The translations under genes and the position numbers were made by a program. A stretch of DNA of 64,000 nt from Heptranchias perlo. Lineage: Eukaryota. Position 1 is the stretch's first letter. Every line of letters starts with the position of its first letter. Below the pieces are notes generated by a model. It was not told the DNA's origin, did not search any database, and worked only from the letters and a program-made list of their open reading frames with translations. The stretch is taken from positions 21,638,001-21,702,000 of the forward strand of contig NC_090336.1 in assembly GCF_035084215.1 (NCBI RefSeq), in the 5' to 3' direction. Positions 29,141-59,175 of the stretch are shown here, piece by piece.

Positions 29141-29639
29141 CGGTGCCTGCTCCCATGCCCGGTCCCCCACTCCCACGTCCCCCGCTCCCGCGCGCCCCCT
29201 CCCCCCCCCCCCCCCAGTGAAGTGTTATCAAACCAACCTTAGCATTTAATGTCGCCATTGCTGTTCTCTAAGTGGCAGATCACCTATCCAGGTACAACCT
29301 GTGTGCTCCTATTAAATTGCAAAAAATAAAATGATTTGAGGTAAAATGTTTGCACGAGACGGGCTCAGATGAGGACTGTCTTGCCAAGTTCCAATGGTTA
29401 AGTTTGTTCAAGAAATGACTGCAATATTGACTAAGGCTCCTAAGGCAATGCTCTTGCTACTGTAGATACTTTTGCAACAATCTGCAATTGATGGCCTTAA
29501 TTTAGTGGAGTTTTTGCATCTCAGCAATCCAGCTCCATTGACACACCCACGATAAAAAAAATTCTGATTTTCCAGTAGGTGCAAAGGTTTGAGATTCCTT
29601 TTCAGGAAAATATGGGTTGGGGAGCTTCCAGAGGAGGAA

Positions 29640-29900
29640 GTGTGTACACTGTGGGGCTGTTCACACGGTAACGATCGAGGGAGGGAGTGTGTACACAGTG
29701 GGGCTGGTCACACAGTAATGATCGGGGAGGGAGTGTGTACACAGTGGGGCTGGTCACACAGTAATGATCGGGGAGGGAGTGTGTACACAGTGGGGCTGGT
29801 CACACATTAATGATCGGGGGAGGGACTGTGTACACAGTGGGGCTGCTAACAGTACTGATCAGGGAGGAAGTGTACACAGTGAGGCTGCTTACATAGTACT
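29640..29900. repeat. About 46-bp minisatellite, roughly 6 diverged units
   Basis: unit GTGTGTACACAGTGGGGCTGGTCACACAGTAATGATCGGGGAGGGA. Confidence 0.9.
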
Positions 29901-39439: not shown

Positions 39440-40053
39440 CTGGAGAAACAGAACAACAAGGACCACACTGAATCCCCAAACAACAATTCTTTGGTAAGAA
39501 AACCCATTAATCGCATCAATTCCCAGCCAGAGAGACAGTTTATGGTACTGTGCTACATTGTATTTCATGACTTACACTACCAGCAGCACAAAGCCGCAAT
39601 GTATCATTCTACCCTTAACTTTCTTTCCTCCTCTCCTGATGTCACTGATTCCTGCTGCTTTACAGTTCCATGGGTGCTGGTAGCACTCTAGCATCTTGTC
39701 CAAGCAACCATTCATGCATGATCCTACACCGAGTGTCTGTGCATTATTTGACTGCTCTCCATAATATAAGAAACTCTTATTTATAGCATGAGAGAAGACC
39801 TGAAATGATATTGCTGAAGAATATTAGAATTACATTGGTCTGTTTCTGTGCTGTACAACCTTTCAGCCCAACAGGTCTCTCTCCCTACTTCATCTAACTA
39901 TCATATCCTTCTATTCCTTTCTCCCTCATTTACGTACCTAGCTTCCCCTTAAATGCATCTATGCACTCAAATACTTCTTGTGGTACAGTTCCACATTCTA
40001 ACCACTCTCTGGGTAAAGAAGTTTCTCCAGAATTCTCTTCTGGATTTATTAGT

Positions 40054-41164
40054 CATGATGTGGAGATGCCGGTGATGGACTGGGGTTGACAATTGTAAAC
40101 AATTTTACAACACCAAGTTATAGTCCAGCAATTTTATTTTAAATTCACAAGCTTTCGGAGATTTTCTCCTTCCTCAGGCAAATGTTTCAAGATCTCCTTG
40201 AAGCCTACGCATTTATACATATTGAACAATAATAAATGGTGTTTACAGACTGCCTCTGCAACTGCCCGTTGCCAAGGCAATCACCGTGTTCAGACAGAGA
40301 GGTGTTACCTGCAGAACCTCCGAATACACATTCAATAAAAAAACAAACAGGGAAAAAAAAACAGAGAAAAAAAAACACAGAGAGAGGCAGAAACATCCGG
40401 AAGGCAGAGAGAGCCAGCAAATGACCCATTATATTAAAAACAGATAACATTTGTTCGCTGGTGGGGTAACGTGTAGCGTGACATGAACCCAAGATCCCGG
40501 TTGAGGCCGTCCTCATGGGTGCGGAACTTGGCTATCAATTTCTGCTCGACGATTTTGCGTTGTCGTGTGTCTCGAAGGCCGCCTTGGAGTACGCTTACCC
40601 GAAGGTCGGTGGATGAATGTCCATGACTGCTGAAGTGTTCCCCGACTGGGAGGGAACCCTCCTGTTTGGCGATTGTTGCGCGGTGTCCGTTCATCCGTTG
40701 TCGCAGCGTCTGCATGGTCTCGCCAATGTACCATGCTCTGGGGCATCCTTTCCTGCAACGTATGAGGTAGACAACGTTGGCTGAGTCACAGGAGTATGAA
40801 CCATGCACCTGGTGGGTGGTGTCATCTCGTGTGATGGTGGTATCTGTGTCGATGATCTGGCATGTCTTGCAGAGGTTACCGTGGCAGGGTTGTGTGGCGT
40901 CGTGGACGCTGTTCTCTTGAAAGCTAGGTAGTTTGCTGCGAACGATGGTCTGTTTGAGGTTGGGTGGCTGTTTAAAGGCGAGTAGTGGAGGTGTGGGGAT
41001 GGCCATAGCGAGGTGTTTGTCCTCATTGATGACATGTTGAAGGCTGCGGAGAACATGGCGTAGTTTCTCCGCTCCGGGGAAGTACTGGACGACAAAGGGT
41101 ACTCTGTTGGTTGCGTCCCGTGTTAGTCTCCTGAGGAGGTCTATGCGATTTTTTGCTGTGGCCC
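40054..41164 (-). mobile_element. Penelope-like element, 5'-truncated, inserted in a CR1 3' fragment in LDHA intron 6
   Basis: GIY-YIG ORF 40434-41006; same terminal sequence ...GTCAACCCCAGTCCATCACCGGCATCTCCACATCA; CR1 sequence continues on both sides. Confidence 0.92.
40144..40182 (-). ncRNA. Minimal hammerhead ribozyme motif (second variant), sense to LDHA pre-mRNA
   Basis: TTTGC-CTGAGGA-A-GGAG-AAAAT-CTCC-GAAA-GC-TT-GTGAA on -. Confidence 0.78.
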
Positions 41165-41765
41165 CTTATATTTATGTGACTATCTTATATTTATGGCCCC
41201 TAGTTCTGATCTCCCCCGCAAGTGGAAACATCTTCTCTACGTCTACCCCATCATTAGGACTTGCTGCTTGGACTAAAAAAGACAATTTGTCAAGCTGCAG
41301 AGAAAAATATGTCTCTCACTTGGGTTAATTACTAGATCCAGGCACCATCGAGACTCTGCAAAGATGCAGCAGTATTTTCCACTGATGAACCATCAAATTC
41401 CAACACCCCATTTCACTTTCTATACCGCAATGCACCCACCCTTTCGTCATATCCTCTAAACATTCTCTCCCAGTAAACTTCCAATTCCTGCTTGGTGTGC
41501 ATCCCTCCCTTTTCCCCTAACTTTTGCCAGTTTAAAAGTGCTAATCAAATGCAATTTACAAGCAGATCTTGACCCTCTCAGGAAGCACTCGAGTTTTCAC
41601 GGCATTTTAAAAGCATGAACCAAAATGGACTGTAACGAGCTTCTCTAACAAATTCCGTTTAGAGACCACAGCAGCCAATATGGAAGCCAATGGAGAATGG
41701 CCACACACACACACACACACACCCCGTTTAGAATTTACAATGGGTCTGATTGCTCCAGTCCTCAC

Positions 41766-43105: not shown

Positions 43106-43619
43106 TATCTGTAACACTGTTTAACTGCAGTTACCTTCTTGGAGTGAAACCATTGTGATCCATGATGTAAACTGATCATCCATAGAAATTGGGAATTTCC
43201 AACTCCATTCTGAACTAGACATTGTGTGTTTTTAAACTGACTTACTGAAGCCTTTACTATATTCCTACTACTGAAGATTCCCATCCCCCACCAGAACTGT
43301 AATCTCATACAGGGTTGCTAATTTTGTGCTTCTGTTCTCTAGATGTATGACCCTAGTTTAAGTTCTAGTTAAAACAGATAGATTATATTACCTCAGCCTT
43401 TCAATAACTATCAGATCCCACTGGGTTACACTGAACTCAACAAGAGGCAATTCCAGTGGGAGGGGAGTAACCCCTTGTCCCGTTAATTCTGTGTAACTCA
43501 GTTCAGGGCTACATGCAGCGACAGGTAGGCGCATATCACAGTTCCCGAGTCACACTGTCTCATTACAATTGTAAACAATTTTACAACACCAAGTTATAGT
43601 CCAGCAATTTTATTTTAAA

Positions 43620-43658
43620 TTCACAAGCTTTCGGAGATTTTCTCCTTCCTCAGGCAAA
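43620..43658 (-). ncRNA. Minimal hammerhead ribozyme motif, sense to LDHA pre-mRNA
   Basis: identical to 40144-40182. Confidence 0.78.
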
Positions 43659-45225
43659 TGTTTCAAGATCTCCTTGAAGCCTACGCATTTATACATATTG
43701 AACAATAATAAATGGTGTTTACAGACTGCCTCTGCAACTGCCCGTTGCCAAGGCCATCACCGTGTTCAGACAGAGAGGTGTTACCTGCAGAACCTCCGAA
43801 TACACATTCAATAAAAAAACAAACAGGGAAAAAAAAAGAGAAAAAAAAAACACAGAGAGAGGCAGAAACATCCGGAAGGCAGAGAGAGCCAGCAAATGAC
43901 CCATTATATTAAAAACAGATAACATTTGTTCGCTGGTGGGGTAACGTGTAGCGTGACATGAACCCAAGATCCCGGTTGAGGCCGTCCTCATGGGTGCGGA
44001 ACTTGGCTATCAATTTCTGCTCGACGATTTTGCGTTGTCGTGTGTCTCGAAGGCCGCCTTGGAGTACGCTTACCCGAAGGTCGGTGGATGAATGTCCATG
44101 ACTGCTGAAGTGTTCCCCGACTGGGAGGGAACCCTCCTGTTTGGCGATTGTTGCGCGGTGTCCGTTCATCCGTTGTCGCAGCGTCTGCATGGTCTCGCCA
44201 ATGTACCATGCTCTGGGGCATCCTTTCCTGCAACGTATGAGGTAGACAACGTTGGCTGAGTCACAGGAGTATGAACCATGCACCTGGTGGGTGGTGTCAT
44301 CTCGTGTGATGGTGGTATCTGTGTCGATGATCTGGCATGTCTTGCAGAGGTTACCGTGGCAGGGTTGTGTGGCGTCGTGGACGCTGTTCTCTTGAAAGCT
44401 AGGTAGTTTGCTGCGAACGATGGTCTGTTTGAGGTTGGGTGGCTGTTTAAAGGCGAGTAGTGGAGGTGTGGGGATGGCCATAGCGAGGTGTTTGTCCTCA
44501 TTGATGACATGTTGAAGGCTGCGGAGAACATGGCGTAGTTTCTCCGCTCCGGGGAAGTACTGGACGACAAAGGGTACTCTGTTGGTTGCGTCCCGTGTTA
44601 GTCTCCTGAGGAGGTCTATGCGATTTTTTGCTGTGGCCCGTCGGAACTGTCGATCGATGAGTCGAGCGTCATATCCCGTTCTTACTAGGGCGTCTTTCAG
44701 CGTCTGTAGGTGTCCATCGCGTTCCTCCTCGTCTGAGCAGACCCTGTGTATTCGCAGGGCCTGTCCATAGGGGATGGCCTCTTTGACGTGGTTAGGGTGG
44801 AAGCTGGAAAAGTGGAGCATCGTGAGGTTGTCCGTGGGCTTGCGGTAGAGTGAGGTGCTGAGGTGCCCGTCTTTGATGGAGACCGCACCCATGAGGACGG
44901 CCTCAACCGGGATCTTGGGTTCATGTCACGCTACACGTTACCCCACCAGCGAACAAATGTTATCTGTTTTTAATATAATGGGTCATTTGCTGGCTCTCTC
45001 TGCCTTCCGGATGTTTCTGCCTCTCTCTGTGTTTTTTTTTTCTCTGTTTTTTTTTCCCTGTTTGTTTTTTTATTGAATGTGTATTCGGAGGTTCTGCAGG
45101 TAACACCTCTCTGTCTGAACACGGTGATTGCCTTGGCAACGGGCAGTTGCAGAGGCAGTCTGTAAACACCATTTATTATTGTTCAATATGTATAAATGCG
45201 TAGGCTTCAAGGAGATCTTGAAACA

Positions 45226-45264
45226 TTTGCCTGAGGAAGGAGAAAATCTCCGAAAGCTTGTGAA
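45226..45264 (+). ncRNA. Minimal hammerhead ribozyme motif
   Basis: same motif on the + arm of the 43568-45352 element. Confidence 0.78.
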
Positions 45265-45564
45265 TTTAAAATAAAATTGCTGGACTATAACTTGGTGTTG
45301 TAAAATTGTTTACAATTGTCAACCCCAGTCCATCACCGGCATCTCCACATCATGTCTCATTACAGCAAGAGCTACTGAGGATATTTGACAGCACTATGCA
45401 AAATGACTTGTACCAGCCTGCAGTCATCTTTTGGCAACAGACTGAGGGAAGCAGTGATATAGCTATCTGGTTCCAGGCCAACTGGCTCCAATATGACATT
45501 TGGCCTACTTCAATTTCAACCTTAACCTCTGAAGCATAAATTGGAGCATCTCCTGCAGGCATAC

Positions 45565-48175: not shown

Positions 48176-48349
48176 CTGGGTTCGACACTACCAGCATGAG
48201 GCAGTCAGGGCTGTGTTTGACGACGTTGGGGATGATGAATTTGAAAATGTTCACATTACGCTGAACAAGGTTCAGGCGGCTCTCTCCCTCCTGCTGCCGA
48301 GCACCAGCCGTGACCACAACCAGCTTGGAGCCAGCGGTCACACTGTAGT
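48176..48349 (-). CDS. LDHA: LDHA exon 4 (active-site loop)
   Basis: cacag|AC...G|gtgag; 174 nt; [57 protein letters not shown]. Confidence 0.97.
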
Positions 48350-48788
48350 CTGTGAAATGAACAAGAGGATATTTACACTAACACGAGGCAGGGTTACTCC
48401 CATAGACACCGTTACACATCTCACTGTTATCCTATGAACTCAACAGCTTGTCTGAAAGAACTGCACCACTTTTACCTCCCCATTACACACTACGTGTGCA
48501 AGAATCAAAACATTCTAGCCCCAACCCCTCGTCCCATACACTAAAGCCCCTGCATTACCACCACAGGAGGCTGGCAGATGCACATACTACAAGCCCTCAC
48601 AGAATTTACGGCACAAAAACAGGTCATTTGGCCTAACTGGTCTATGTATGTGTTTATGCTCCAATCTCAAAGCCTGGTCACAAGAGGCCCATACATGCTA
48701 TTTCCAGCATGAGCCCTGGCTAATTCTGTTTTTTTCTCCCCTCCCCACCCCCCACCCACCCACCGCCCGCCCCCAGCCTTCTACTCAC

Positions 48789-48906
48789 CCTTGCCGGCCA
48801 CAATCTTGGGAGTGTGAAGGAAGAGGCTACCATGTTGTAGATCCATCATCTCTCCCTTCAACTTGTCCTCCATTACATCCACCAGAGCCACCTCATCTGC
48901 CAGATC
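48789..48906 (-). CDS. LDHA: LDHA exon 3
   Basis: ttcag|GAT...G|gtgag; 118 nt; [39 protein letters not shown]. Confidence 0.96.
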
Positions 48907-49524
48907 CTGAAACAGGGAACTATGTGAGTCACAACTACATTCAATCAGAGTCAGCTCCCAAGGGCCTCATGCTGCCGTAAACCTTGCACTCCAGTAGTCA
49001 GGATTCGACAGTCATACTATTTCCAGTAAGCTGATCCTAGCCAGGGTAGCAGTATAGGTACTGCAATATGTCTCAGCATCCCTGGGATAGGATGGGGGAA
49101 AATTAACCAAAGTTTCTGTTCCTGATGACATATGTTGGAAAGCACATGTGGCTGTCAGATATCAGGAACTCATTTGGCTGTGATGCCCCCTGTAATGGCA
49201 CAGCCTAGCAAAACACTCCGTCTAGACCACATGGACAAGGTTAGGAACACTCCACCTGCAAGAATCAGTGTCTACAGAAGAGGAGGATAGAAAATGCAGG
49301 GGTGGCAATTGGGGGGAAAATCAAAGTTGGCAACACCATGCAACCATATATGCCCCATGGTGTTCACACTAGGGCAGACCAGATTGCCCATCCTAAGAGG
49401 CCCAGAACTGCAGAAGCCCTACCATTCTCCAATCATGGTCCCCAAAGGCCAGTCTGAAATAAATCAGAATCTCAACTTGCAGCCTAGTAGAAGCTACCAC
49501 ATTATCACCTGACCCCTGTCTTAC

Positions 49525-49653
49525 CTTCATTAAGACGCTGATGGCACATGCCATTCCTACTGCGCCCACACCAACAATTGTTATCTTGTTGTACGATCGC
49601 TCCGCCTGGGAGGTCGTCAAATGCCCGATTAGCTTGTCCTTGAGGTTGGCCAT
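49525..49653 (-). CDS. LDHA: LDHA first coding exon (exon 2), NAD-binding GxGxxG
   Basis: acceptor ggcag|CAAAA-ATG (exon starts 49658); [43 protein letters not shown]|gtaag; the seven exons sum to 1002 nt = 333 aa + stop. Confidence 0.96.
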
Positions 49654-50219
49654 TTTTGCTGCCGAAGGAAATAAAAATTTGTATCAGCTCATCGGTCGCT
49701 TTAACCCAGAAGCTCAGCATCGTAAATCAACCAGGAGAGCAGATTGATATTGGAGCCCAGCCATCACAGCAAAGTGTGCAAGTGCTGGATACAACTACCT
49801 CTTTCTCTTTCCTTTCACTCCTCACAAAAGCACAACGCAAGTCGATGAGGAGTAAACACTATTCAGCCCCTCAACATTTACTTGCTATATGATCTAACTC
49901 ATCCAACTACATCTTGAACTCTCAATATCTCATACTACTATATTGGCTGACAAATTAAATAATAAAGAGTAAAGAATGTTTCCTAATATACTGTTTTGTT
50001 TTAAATTTTAAAAAAATGTATTTCACCAACTTAAATTTACATCCTCTGACCCCACTGCCCTGACTGGCTTGAAGCAATATCTGGGATCAATTTACTCATC
50101 TATACCATTTAATCTTTTATATACCTTGATGAGGTACCCTCAGAACCTACTTTTAAAAGACTATTGAGCTCAAATTTCACTCATCTTTTCCAAACGCTCA
50201 TTCCTTATGATACGAGATT

Positions 50220-52782: not shown

Positions 52783-52917
52783 TTCACATCGTTCACCTGA
52801 GGAAGGGGGAAGCCTCCGAAAGCTTGTGAATTTAAAATAAAATTGCTGGACTATAACTTGGTGTTGTAAAATTGTTTACAATTGTCAACCCCAGTCCATC
52901 ACCGGCATCTCCACATC
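52783..52917 (+). mobile_element. Penelope-like 3' terminal fragment including the hammerhead motif
   Basis: near-identical to 2668-2803. Confidence 0.9.
52792..52830 (+). ncRNA. Minimal hammerhead ribozyme motif
   Basis: TTCAC-CTGAGGA-A-GGGGG-AAG-CCTCC-GAAA-GC-TT-GTGAA. Confidence 0.78.
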
Positions 52918-54120: not shown

Positions 54121-56904
54121 TGAGAGAAATCAAACTGGTGGCAACCAAGAGTGATTTCTACAAGATCATGCAACAGCAAACAGTGCCACGGTATTCACTG
54201 CCCATTTGAATTGAAACTGCTGCAGGTAACCCCATACAATAGAAAAACCCCAAGCAATGCTGAATAATAACATTCACAACAAGCCTCTCCTTTATCTCCT
54301 TCAACCTAAGTGAAATATTAATGGGATAGACAGCAGAGAAAGATACCGACAGTTCTAATTGCAGATACCGATCATGTAATGTGCAGCTCCAGGCCACTCA
54401 TACTTGCATGTTCCAACTTCTAATACCTCAAACATTGTAGTCTAAATAGAGTCAGCCATTGGGGGCTGGTGGGATGGGGCAGAGAGGGGAAGAAACAGGA
54501 GGGAAACGTGGAAAAGCATTCAGCTGTTTCAGAGACTATTCAAACAGATCTATTTCGAGGAGGGAGGTGGTTACGAAACCTACAAGTAATTGGTAACCTT
54601 TCACTACTGCCAATTGGCACCAGCCCAGTGAGAAATGAGGAAGAAAATTTCACAAGACAGACAGTTAAGCAAGGCAAAGAAACATAAGCGATTATTGCAC
54701 ATTGGTCACATCAAGGTTACACTTCAATGTGTTCCTTAAAATAAAGTGGTTGACAGACAAATTATCTGAGATGTCACCCACAGTCTTCTGGTATAAAAAG
54801 CAAACTGAATTTGCCAAGGAATGTTATCTGTATTAGGGATTGACCTTTCCACCACTCCCAATAATTCCAAGGCATGGTGGAGCAGGCAAAGATTACATTT
54901 AACATGAGCCAGGGCTTCTAGTGTACCATGTGTCCTGTGCTCGTCTGAGACTGGTTTTGAGTAGAGGAAGATTTGAAACTCAGCACAGTGACAGAGTTAT
55001 GTAAAATTATCAGTTACAGTTCAAGCAGTCACTGAAATCTTGCTGATGCCAAACTGCACACTGAAAGAGGAAGACATGAAGAAAACTTGCTCATCAGGAT
55101 GCTGCTGAATCATCAGCCCCTGCACTGAACCTCATGGTGGTTTTGCCATTTATAATTTTCCATTGGCAATTTCCATGCAATAATGCCACCACTTTTATCA
55201 TACAAAAGATGAATTGCACACCACCAATAGTATCCAGGACTTTAAAAAAAAGCCCCAATAGCAACTGAAGACAGCACAAAATGCATTCCAGTTCAACATC
55301 TTCACTAAGTTAACAAGTGTGAGACAAGACAATTACATTTGAATAGTATGGCAAAGATAAAAATGGGACAGGATGGTGTTGGAGAAGACCGAGGGGATGC
55401 TTGGTCATATTTTGAACTCTGATGATTCCTTTGCTGCTGTTGGACAGCTTAGGAATGAATGGTTTCATACAATGACACAAAAAGAAACAGAGAAAGATAA
55501 AGATCAGTTTTAAAATGAGACTTTTAGATTCCTAGTTACTTTATACATTTATAGCATTTTTAATAACTATTAAAATGGAATTGGATAAGTATTTGAGGAG
55601 GAGGAGTATATAAAAAGGGATATAGAGCAAGAGCAAGGAAATGAGATTACAGTAGATGGCTCCAATAGGCCAACTGGTCCCCTTCTGTGTTTATAGGACT
55701 TTCTAGTTAGGTGGTGGCCTGGCCTTCCACAGGGCATTTGTGGCCAATGATTCTGTATTGGAACTGACTTTCCTCCATGCGAAACTACACAGTAATTTTT
55801 GTCCTACCCAATTATGACAAGTATGTACCAAAGCTTTGCATGTGAAGTGACTATGTAACGAGCTCCCAACTTAAGTCCAAAACTGGACCAGGTGGCAAAG
55901 GGGAAGCATGGTTTAAGTCCTAAGATTTGATTGGCTCAAAAGATATGTTTTTACATTATTCTAATACAGAACAAAGACAGAACAGTAATGTGGACAGAAT
56001 TGGTTTAAACTGTGTTTTCGCAAATCCTGTCTTTTTCCTTCAATGAAGCGGATCACATTGGAGAGGATGAGTTTCAGGGCCGAAAATATTGTACTGTACA
56101 GACAGACATATATAAATTATTAAAATAAATAAGCTAGTTGGGTAATAGAGCTTTAATGGGTTGTTAGGATTAAAACACAGGCTTCTGATCACAGCGGGGG
56201 AGGGGCGGGAGGGAAGTGTAAGAAAGGAGATTGCTGCAATATAAAAGGCTTCTATAGAGCAGACATCAAAGGTTTTGTACAACAAAGCTACAGCTCAGGA
56301 AAAGCAACGATAAGAAGTAACAGTATGGTATGAAAAGACACGAGGCCTCTCATCCCTGTCCAGCTATCTGTTCTGAGGACTGGGGGTCATAAAACACCAG
56401 ATAGTGTTGCATCCAGCAGGAAATAGAAAATGGCATAAAAAGAGCCACAACATTTGACTCGGTAGGAGCTTTTGCTTTGCCGACAAGACCACATGCATGA
56501 ATAGGCTCGGATAAGCCATTCTCGCGATTTACGCCGAGACATTCCCTGCAGAGATAGTTTCAGACATGGGGCTAAATGTGTGCTATGCTGAATAAAATAT
56601 TAAATGATGAATGTTTTGAAGAAAGAATAAATGAAGTTAATTCTCAGACATATTACTATCTCTAGCTTTACAAATCTGTTAAAAGGATAAGGAAGGAATT
56701 ATCCAACAACAGCCATTCAGCCTATCCATCCAGAAAGAGGTCATAACAGCAGCTAAGTTATGTGATTCCAACATTTTGCTTCAAGTATCCAACCCAGGAG
56801 CCTATTCTATATATTGATCAGTCCATGTGGAGAAAAACTTCCCATCAGTCCTGAATTTGCATTTCAGTAATTTGAATCCACTCTTCTCTGCTTTGTCATT
56901 TTGA

Positions 56905-57135
56905 CAATTGTAAACAATTTTACAACACCAAGTTATAGTCCAACGATTTTTATTTGAAATCTACAAGCTTTCGGAACCTGTGTTTTAATCCTAACAACCC
57001 ATTAAAGCTCTATTACCCAACTAGCTTATTTATTTTAATAATTTATATATGTCTGTCTGTACAGTACAACTTGGTGTTGTAAAATTGTTTACAATTGTCA
57101 ACCCCAGTCCATCACCGGCATCTCCACATCATGGC
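56905..57135. mobile_element. Mini Penelope-like insertion: inverted termini enclosing 93 bp of captured local sequence; TSD of about 12 bp
   Basis: - terminus 56905-56975, + terminus 57068-~57132; TSD TTGTCATTTTGA at 56893-56904 and 57136-57147. Confidence 0.9.
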
Positions 57136-58519
57136 TTGTCATTTTGAAGCAGTGTTCCAGATTTACTATTCTTATGCTAATTACTACCTTGACTATCTCC
57201 TCCTTCCAAAAGCTGAAAAACCCAATTGTCTGCAGAATTTCCTCAAATCAATTCTCTTAACATGACAGATTGGTCTCATGACTCTATCTTGAATTCCTCA
57301 TCAAAATAATAGTTGTAACCTTTCACACAGAACTTTGGCAAAGGCTTTTTGAAAGTCTACCTATACAGTCGATTCAGGGTAAGGCTTGTCAGGCAACATC
57401 TGTCCCTTCTGGGCTACAACATAATGCAAGTTACTTTCAAGTTTACTTCCAATAATCAGTTATATTATTTCATCCCATATTCATGTCCAGATCTTTTTTT
57501 TGCAAATGGACACCATATTCACTCATTTTAACCTAGTAAGATCTCTCCAGCATTCATCACCTCCCTCAGAAAATGGTCAACACTGCACAAAACCCTTTCC
57601 TTGTCTCACTTTGTATCCTAGGATTAATATCTAATGCTGTCACATTGAGTTTTGGAAAAAAAACTTCTGAACGTCTGAATTTCCCGTCAACATCTGGACT
57701 GTGATTCAGGTGTCCAACCCATGTGCGAGAACCAACTCAGTCGCATGGCCCGCGGGCATCTTTGAACAAGCACGTGTGCCATCCTACGACATTATGGCAG
57801 CTGTAGTCTCCCGGAGTAACGAGGGGCAGTGACAAGACTACTGCTACACCTAGAGGGCATCGCACGCAGTCTGGCGATGTTGCTGTGTCTCGGATGAAAC
57901 GACTCGTCCAGAGACTGGATTAGAAGCGAGAGCGATTCCCGAGCATCGCCTTCCTGGAGCTTCACTCAAAGTCAGCACCAAGGTCGCGGCGGGAGCTCAG
58001 GTTAATTCATTTATAAATCCTCACATCTAACGGGACTCCCACTAATCAGCTATTTAAATAGCGGATGCCGCATTAAAATTGATTACTGTAAATGGAAAGA
58101 ACAACCAAAAGCCCTGCGCCATCACACCAGGAACTGGGCATTACACGACAATTATACCAATAAGCTACATAAAAACTGCACCATAAACATAATTGTATTA
58201 TATTGTACGGCTGGCAAAAGAACATTTTTTTAAAAGTAGTACAATATAATACAATTTACCTGCAAAATTTGTTTTCCTACACAAATACATTTGATATCTA
58301 TATTCAATCTTAGATAAAAACAGTGTGATACAATACATATAAACGAGGTTATGCTATATTTGACGTATTATTTTATACAAATAAAGCATCTTATCTTGAC
58401 TAGGAATGCAACATCTAATATCTCGCACGTATAGCGGCGAGGTACATGCAGCGACGCCGCTTTATTCGGGCAGCACGATCGATCGCTGTGTTTGTCGCTA
58501 CAATGTATCGACCCGTTAC

Positions 58520-58550
58520 CTGCTTCTTCTGGCGAGACTCTGCAGTGACC
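58520..58550 (-). other. LDHA: Probable non-coding exon 1 of LDHA (5' boundary approximate)
   Basis: donor GCAG|GTAACG at 58520/58519 in a CpG-rich region, about 55 nt downstream of a TATA-like TTAAATA; vertebrate LDHA has an untranslated first exon. Confidence 0.6.
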
Positions 58551-58569
58551 CGCTCCCCTCAATGACGGC

Positions 58570-58715
58570 CCTTATTTAAGCGGCACGTCATAATGCGTCA
58601 CGCTCTCATCTGCATATCACGTAACCAAGCCGCGCACAGGCGAGCGGCCGTCGTGATTACGTCGGAATGTGAGTGGCGGGGGGGCAGCTGGTCGTGCCCG
58701 GAGTCACGTAGAGAG
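58570..58715 (-). promoter_or_regulatory. LDHA proximal promoter: TATA-like box, HIF (RCGTG) cores, CRE-like sites, GC box
   Basis: TTAAATA 58573-58579; TGACGTG 58584-58590; TGACG 58596-58600; ACGTG 58618-58622 and 58705-58709; GGCGGG 58675-58680; CpG-dense over about 57700-59150. Confidence 0.7.
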
Positions 58716-59175
58716 CGGAATCGGAAAGGGGATTTTAGTTATCGTGAGGAAGTGGTTAGGGTGAGACATATTAATAAATATACTGGGGGGGGGGGGGGGA
58801 AATTGAATAGATCAAGTTGCATTTGGTGCTATATGTTATTTGCATAGTCATGATGAGTCTCCATAAAGATATGCAATAGAGATATTACTGATTGTGAGGA
58901 TCAGCCTTTGGCGGGTATTTCCAATTTTAGTAAACGCACGTCCAACCCGTCGGCATAAATGGCTGTCCTGTCCGTGTGCTGTCATCTGCATGATCCTCCA
59001 ACAGATATACGTCACCCTCGTGTAACTTCATAAGTAGCAGGCAGAGAGGATCCCAATACAAGTGCAAGGAAGTTGGTGCTTTGTGCAGTGTGTCTTATCG
59101 ACATGTTCTGTTATCCGGATACGGTGGGGATCCGCTTTGAAATGGATCACAGATATCGACACAGTCTGATCTCAA

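Follow-up and report, generated by a model that had tools for sequence, protein, structure and literature searches.

Locally templated host DNA at the centre of a short Penelope-like insertion near LDHA in Heptranchias perlo

A short insertion of a Penelope-like element (PLE) at positions 56893-57147 of the window, which denotes the complete 64-kb stretch of Heptranchias perlo DNA analysed here, carries between its two inverted PLE ends a 93-bp piece of host DNA that has an exact donor close by. This structure is confirmed, and insertions of the same family whose centres were copied from their own surroundings recur in the genome, with donors on both sides and in both orientations. We consider it probable that the filler is a DNA-templated patch synthesised at integration, which would make the LDHA-locus unit a dead-on-arrival insertion of Penelope/Poseidon type closed with nearby host sequence.

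Anatomy of the insertion and its gene context

The features of the window that are relevant to this study are as follows, with the strand given where one applies.

43565-45357: family reference, a longer copy of the insertion's PLE family, also head-to-head, with a C-terminal ORF (putative GIY-YIG)
48177-49653, minus strand: first three LDH coding exons, with the ATG at about 49653; best PDB match M4 (A-type) LDH
55941-56708: older, unclassified dispersed repeat around the donor, about 770 bp long and 74-89% identical to 12 fetched copies
56089-56181, minus strand: filler donor, located 711 bp to the left of the target-site duplication (TSD)
56893-56904: left TSD copy, 12 bp, the last 4 bases of which also match the PLE end
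56905-56975, minus strand: left arm, an inverted and tail-less PLE 3' end that stops within the hammerhead-like motif
56976, plus strand: single extra A, part of neither the PLE nor the exact core, within a 5/6 imperfect match to the donor flank
56977-57069, plus strand: filler (core) of 93 bp, an exact inverted copy of 56089-56181
57068-57135, plus strand: right arm, a forward PLE 3' end that carries a tail of about 35 nt and overlaps the filler by 2 nt (AA)
57136-57147: right TSD copy
58520-58710, minus strand: putative LDHA promoter and short non-coding exon 1, with ACGTG sites, a TATA-like box and a GT donor at 58519

The 12-mer TTGTCATTTTGA that forms the TSD is present in exactly two copies across the 64 kb of the window (56893-56904 and 57136-57147). 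Both arms are shorter than 100 bp. The left arm is 90-92% identical to five other copies in the window over 56901/56905-56975, the first four bases of this match overlapping the TSD, and the right arm with its tail (57068-57135) matches other PLE copies of the window at 97-98%. All 93 of the 93 core bases agree with the reverse complement of 56089-56181, and the identity stops at both borders. Comparison within the window therefore bears out what a first, sequence-only reading of this DNA had described, namely TSDs around an inverted and a forward PLE terminus, a 93-bp core that is a perfect reverse complement of the nearby segment, and a 2-nt AA overlap at the junction with the tail-bearing arm. 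Three details are added here: the extra A at 56976, the left junction, where the arm end TCGGAA and the donor neighbour TCAGAAG match in 5/6 positions with one base skipped, and the position of the donor within an older repeat.

A genome search with the core returned 359 candidates, of which 40 were scored. Only the core itself and its donor were exact among these, the remaining 38 being 80-86% identical, so that the local copy alone can be the exact source. Twelve fetched core-like copies align onwards into the donor flanks (55941-56708) and not into the PLE arms, which rules out that the core is a piece of a PLE subfamily consensus. This concern had been raised together with the original observation, as a core that is a high-copy part of the PLE; the repeat that was found to be dispersed is that of the donor, and only its local copy is exact among the 40 scored.

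MITEs and Pack-MULE-like capture elements have TIR-like ends, a TSD and a host fragment inside, all of which are common to the LDHA-locus unit. The latter differs in being made by retrotransposition, in its asymmetry and in showing no sign of remobilisation. Its ends are not symmetric TIRs abutting the TSD, as the tail of about 35 nt is found at the right end only, and no near-identical copy of the complete unit with its interior was found elsewhere. Since none of the 40 scored candidates beyond the donor is a further exact copy of the core, the unit was not remobilised, and a MITE or remobilised unit is ruled out with the core exact only in the unit and the donor (40 scored of 359). The earlier description of the unit as MITE-shaped can be dropped as well, its shape being the routine insertion form of the PLE family (16,097 units, see below). 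The best reading of the LDHA-locus unit is that of a dead-on-arrival retrotransposition scar.

The host gene was assigned from the exon at 48177-48350, whose best match is M4 (A-type) LDH, and from TSG101 (UEV domain), which lies convergent to the LDH gene in an order that we take to be linked to LDHA. The promoter-like signals listed above lie upstream of the insertion, as does a CpG-rich stretch. Judged from these signals, the insertion probably lies within an 8.9-kb first intron of LDHA behind a putative non-coding exon 1, and an exon 1 at 58520-58710 or a transcript start nearer the ATG are both possible. Three runs guessed to be RNA have zero cover at 58506-58800, and one contig of run X5 extends unspliced from 49628 to 49968. 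Spliced LDH mRNA is present in the same run, as seen from the exon 2-3 junction.

Seven sequencing runs are available from one sample, possibly the source of the assembly, and contigs of runs X1, X5, X6 and X7 were compared to the locus. X1 contigs cover both flanks of the insertion, one of them running unbroken through the donor. None of the contig pieces listed for these four runs bridges the insertion, whose arms are found at very high depth, and no empty-allele joint is among the joints listed; the read contigs thus neither confirm nor refute the insertion at the LDHA locus. By itself the locus shows no sign of function, and the insertion is ordinary.

The PLE family and the recurrence of local cores

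The longer family copy encodes a 338-aa C-terminal ORF (43912-44925) with a GIY-YIG Pfam match at an E value of 0.0018 and 19 bits, which is under the cut-off of 22.6; the RT core is absent from the truncated PLE copies of the window. A hammerhead-like CTGAnGA...GAAA core with stems I and II folds in the copy at 52787-52850. This designation relies on what we take to be the minimal hammerhead pattern, and an Rfam search gave no hammerhead match. As in EN+ PLEs, the LDHA-locus unit contains an inverted 5'-truncated copy with inverted-repeat ends and a TSD, and its tail stands on one side only, an arrangement shared by 48/50 units of a genome sample in which exactly one side carries the tail. 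By these structural features the element fits the Penelope/Poseidon type. Inverted pLTR ends with a one-sided tail are reported as standard for PLEs (PMC8557442), and Penelope/Poseidon elements (PMC8557442; PMC11167929) share the inverted-repeat layout, the tail of 30-40 nt at one end and the TSD; the putative GIY-YIG C-terminal ORF in longer copies and the hammerhead-like motif of the pLTR may correspond as well.

Genome-wide, 16,097 short head-to-head units were counted in which two PLE ends face each other 20-300 bp apart, compared to 0 for a reversed-pattern control, and exact PLE tails number 34,107. The 50 units listed among the 16,097, an unselected sample, were all examined with flanks of 1.5 kb (15 units), 2.5 kb (15) or 0.3 kb (20); they correspond to 48 distinct units because three represent one duplicated copy. 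The TSD has its modal length of 12 bp in 26/50 units and measures 12-15 bp in 44/50. Many core-free units are near-perfect palindromes. In some units of the family, such as L021 and L143, the two arms are of differing subfamily sequence, which suggests that two RNAs may contribute to one insertion. A non-PLE centre of at least 25 nt was found in 2 of the 48 distinct units (about 4%), one without a local source (L018) and one copied from the surrounding satellite (L025). Extrapolated with a wide margin to the genome (2/48 x 16,097), this would correspond to about 670 units with a non-PLE core.

A targeted core screen was performed with four patterns, which hit 92, 2,073, 1,223 and 679 places, and the 92, 50, 50 and 100 places listed for them, respectively, were inspected visually. 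Forty candidates were retrieved together with flanks of about 4.8 kb in both directions, and eight of them were excluded, six as PLE-internal (L120, L121, L129, L130, L132, L133), L156 for its unparsed arms and L144 for an unclassifiable 21-nt centre. Among the 32 cores retained, 26 have an exact match of at least 20 nt in their own +/-4.8-kb flanks and two show weaker local matches of 15 and 16 nt. The other four (L124, L134, L137, L149) have no source within 4.8 kb; the core of L137 has one other copy 39 kb off in cis on the same contig at 98% identity, and that of L134 belongs to a high-copy repeat, none of whose 40 scored copies is an exact donor. Extrapolation from two of the patterns (11/50 x 1,223 + 8/50 x 2,073) gives about 600 units with a mappable host patch, again with a wide margin.

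The 26 donors lie 6 to 1,960 bp from their unit (median 430 bp), with 24 of them at no more than 1.1 kb (binomial p ~1e-13 against a uniform distribution) and none at 2-4.8 kb, and donor-core identity is mostly 96-100%. Side and orientation are mixed, ten donors being direct and to the right, six direct-left, six inverted-right and four inverted-left. When the cores were compared to the other loci as a control, the median best match was 0 for all but two cores, and the match in the own flank exceeded every control in 21/26. L135, L155 and L157 are exceptions to this test, their control being 0 under another mask. L119, L138, L139 and L145 lie in common repeats, where another locus matches as well or nearly so and the donor is ambiguous. 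The mapping of sources for non-PLE cores between paired PLE termini, as proposed by the sequence-only reading, yields for these cores strong enrichment within about 1 kb in mixed orientation, and supports its suggestion that PLE insertion captures local sequence in cis.

Template and timing of the filler

At the LDHA locus a copy of nearby DNA, short microhomology and an intact TSD occur together, as in a locally templated insertion. In one unit, L157, the nature of the template can be read: the left arm folds back, makes an inverted copy of itself, of the TSD and of some 40 bp of flanking DNA, and then joins the right arm, with two mismatches in the recopied stretch of about 130 nt. As the new arm-flank junction lies beyond any transcript, a DNA template is required in this case. 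Fold-backs, restarts and slips are also found at the junctions of L118, L122, L140, L141, L150 and L155. Out of 54 junctions, 20 have an overlap of 2-6 nt and five one of 0-1 nt, and 29 contain extra bases. Repair synthesis copying local DNA, which had been named as the second option when the unit was first noticed, is supported by the local donors of mixed orientation and by the DNA-only case of L157.

In the mechanism that we favour, the endonuclease would cut both strands about 12 nt apart, and both target 3' ends would be reverse-transcribed from PLE RNA, one from the tail start and the other from an internal start. Both cDNAs would stop early and leave two same-sense flaps that are unable to anneal with one another. 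One of these flaps, in the simplest case that on the left, may then pair over about 5 nt with DNA roughly 0.8 kb back on its own strand, be extended by 93 nt and join the right flap via the 2-nt overlap. Such patching would close the insertion by snap-back or synthesis-dependent microhomology-mediated joining, with a host repair polymerase or the PLE RT as the enzyme. If the left arm primed, the template would be the plus strand, which is antisense to LDHA and is the strand carrying the left flap; the microhomology asymmetry is a weak indicator of the priming arm.

Several observations count against DNA patching. The template strand is mostly unreadable directly, and the side-by-orientation pattern predicted from resection is a weak test, being post hoc with 19 vs 7 cases (p=0.03) and reaching 14/21 (p=0.19) in the clear cases, some gaps being SNP-inflated. 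Furthermore, L128 joins pieces of both flanks in an order contrary to simple 5' resection, and donorless or ambiguous cores have to be counted here as well.

A broader version of patching at integration, which we regard as possible at a tentative level, holds that PLE integration routinely consists of reverse transcription from both strands, sometimes of two RNAs, after which the telomerase-related PLE RT itself and not a host polymerase would hop to host DNA within about 2 kb, or to nascent RNA at transcribed sites, and so close the gap. If this were true, PLEs would keep supplying the germline with short local duplications and inversions by the hundreds, and the gap in the PLE cycle at its closing step would be filled.

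The sequence-only reading had put first a jump of the RT in the tail-bearing arm from PLE RNA to nascent LDHA pre-mRNA, or an R-loop, which would have been copied over 93 nt before joining the other arm. Read from the tail arm the core indeed has LDHA sense, its overlap of 2 nt is clean, and an LDH gene with spliced mRNA in run X5 probably harbours the locus in its first intron; both pieces of L128 can derive from one strand, and the L137 donor is 39 kb off in cis. Transcription-coupled templated insertions at breaks (10.1101/2022.09.30.509517) and jumps of the R2 RT to other RNAs (PMC11371274) have been reported. However, LDHA sense requires priming by the tail arm, and the left junction primes about equally well, from the antisense strand. 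Moreover, LDHA transcription runs through the cut before it reaches the donor, so that the donor would be missing from the RNA of a polymerase stalled at the break. Because either arm can prime, the left junction matches in 5/6 positions and the source lies downstream of the cut, the sense argument for an RNA template is not diagnostic. With donors that end at about 2 kb on both sides genome-wide and with L157 requiring a DNA template, we consider the RNA jump improbable and no longer take it as the lead reading.

Just as unlikely in our view is an addition of the core after insertion, in which a head-to-head palindrome broke at its centre by hairpin or cruciform cleavage and the gap was filled from nearby DNA. 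Such repair predicts the same local, two-sided donor spectrum, cores are always found at the palindrome axis, many of the core-free units are near-perfect palindromes, and unspaced inverted repeats are described as prone to breakage (PMC3300023). On the other hand, 46/48 units persist as palindromes without a core, and the intact TSDs and outer arms together with the mostly 96-100% identical donors would place a second event soon after insertion. L1 and R2 are furthermore reported to form such junctions during integration.

It is highly improbable that the core is an artefact of assembly or matches a common repeat by chance or in trans: the donor does lie in a repeat with hundreds of copies, and no listed contig piece spans the insertion, with one X1 contig unbroken through the donor, but the local copy alone is exact against at most 86% identity for the other 38 scored copies, the perfect TSD has the modal length of the family, dozens of independent loci are built alike, and short-read contigs are expected to break at arms of very high depth.

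Relation to known integration junctions

During polymerase theta-dependent or synthesis-dependent microhomology-mediated end joining, an end primes synthesis on itself or on nearby DNA before it is joined. The 3' ends of R2 cDNA are likewise reported to snap back onto the cDNA or nearby rDNA (PMC11371274, PRINT 5' junctions). Fold-backs, restarts and overlaps of 2-6 nt are shared between R2 snap-back junctions, polymerase theta junctions and the PLE units, the latter being distinguished from R2 PRINT as a natural germline record of a different retroelement class with longer reach.

In L1 twin priming and templated insertions (10.1101/2024.08.27.596794; PMC11702581), cDNA ends are also joined by microhomology. 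Genomic templates of L1 are given as shorter than 250 bp and typically within 15 bp of the site, with 22 templated cases compared to about 3,600 solo insertions (10.1101/2024.08.27.596794), whereas in the PLE family about 4% of units are affected, the donors have a median distance of 430 bp and extend as far as 2 kb, and both arms begin at the element's 3' end.

For PLEs themselves, the anole Poseidon protein is reported to cleave and extend both strands, with two RT start sites bounding the tail, and how an insertion is completed once reverse transcription is over is described as not validated (PMC11167929). Compared to the Penelope/Poseidon insertions described there and in PMC8557442, the LDHA-locus unit has arms below 100 bp and a centre of host DNA from less than 1 kb away; the passages of these two articles drawn on here describe neither locally templated centres nor their frequency. 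Solo pLTRs of Adineta vaga (PMC3846280) share non-PLE sequence between pLTRs and a TSD around the whole unit. The best example among them is an entire gene with introns that was moved in trans, for which the parts of that article used here report no local donor, in contrast to the short patches of the shark units, which were taken up in cis from within 2 kb and were not remobilised. The literature searched, comprising main texts with few from subscription journals, did not describe PLE insertions with locally templated cores. On this comparison, a templated-junction process like that of L1 and R2 appears to operate in the PLE class, here with a donor cut-off near 2 kb.

The approximately 16,000 young, short, TSD-bounded units preserve on a large scale how PLE integration closed in nature, and donor distance, side, strand and overlap are countable in them and can be tested against gene direction. 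They also illustrate that units with TIRs, a TSD and a host core, which look like capture MITEs, can be one-off scars of retrotransposition.

Probable templates of the cores and junction fillers

Among the short head-to-head units of Penelope/Poseidon-type elements (PLEs) in the Heptranchias perlo assembly (G000), the clearest case of DNA-templated copying is L157 (contig C1, ~89.819 Mb), in which a fold-back of the left arm has given a second copy of the arm, the TSD and ~40 bp of flank. The 59-bp core of unit L137 (C2:146938200) has a unique match at C2:146977630, 39 kb away in cis, far above the 2 kb usual for such cores. In a one-armed PLE copy within the LDH gene (window 40051-41175), the 5' junction holds 11 bp of filler, for which there is a match ~20 bp to the right. 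Four further units (L025, L026, L027 and L172; C1, 3.9-4.0 Mb) are located in a satellite array, where one was copied three times along with the array and the core of one derives from the satellite itself.

Composition and ends of the PLE arms

In units L021 and L143 the two arms of a single insertion belong to differing subfamily variants, which suggests that two separate RNAs were used in one event. A minimal hammerhead-like motif is present in the PLE terminal repeat (pLTR) at window 52787-52850 and in every sufficiently long PLE arm; Rfam gave no match. Many arms end less than ~30 nt 5' of it, a position suggesting that the reverse transcriptase frequently stops at the hammerhead-like structure. 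The PLE family is young and dense: the window holds seven or more PLE ends in its 64 kb, and two longer head-to-head insertions (1019-2804 and 43565-45357) contain ORF fragments ~99% identical to each other.

Surroundings of the LDHA insertion

The window also contains two tandem arrays:

3488-4025, 33-bp unit, 16 copies, 97% matches
29633-29898, 46-bp unit

An unclassified dispersed repeat of ~770 bp occupies 55941-56708; its copies number in the hundreds and are 74-89% identical. Compared with the assembly, sequencing run X1 shows differences at 56195, 57251, 57281 and 54349 that are probably allelic: an 8-bp insertion adjoining the donor of the 93-bp core and three A>G changes. A contig from a presumed RNA run (49628-49968) reaches ~310 bp upstream of the supposed acceptor of LDH exon 2, a hint that the start is nearer or that an intron is retained.
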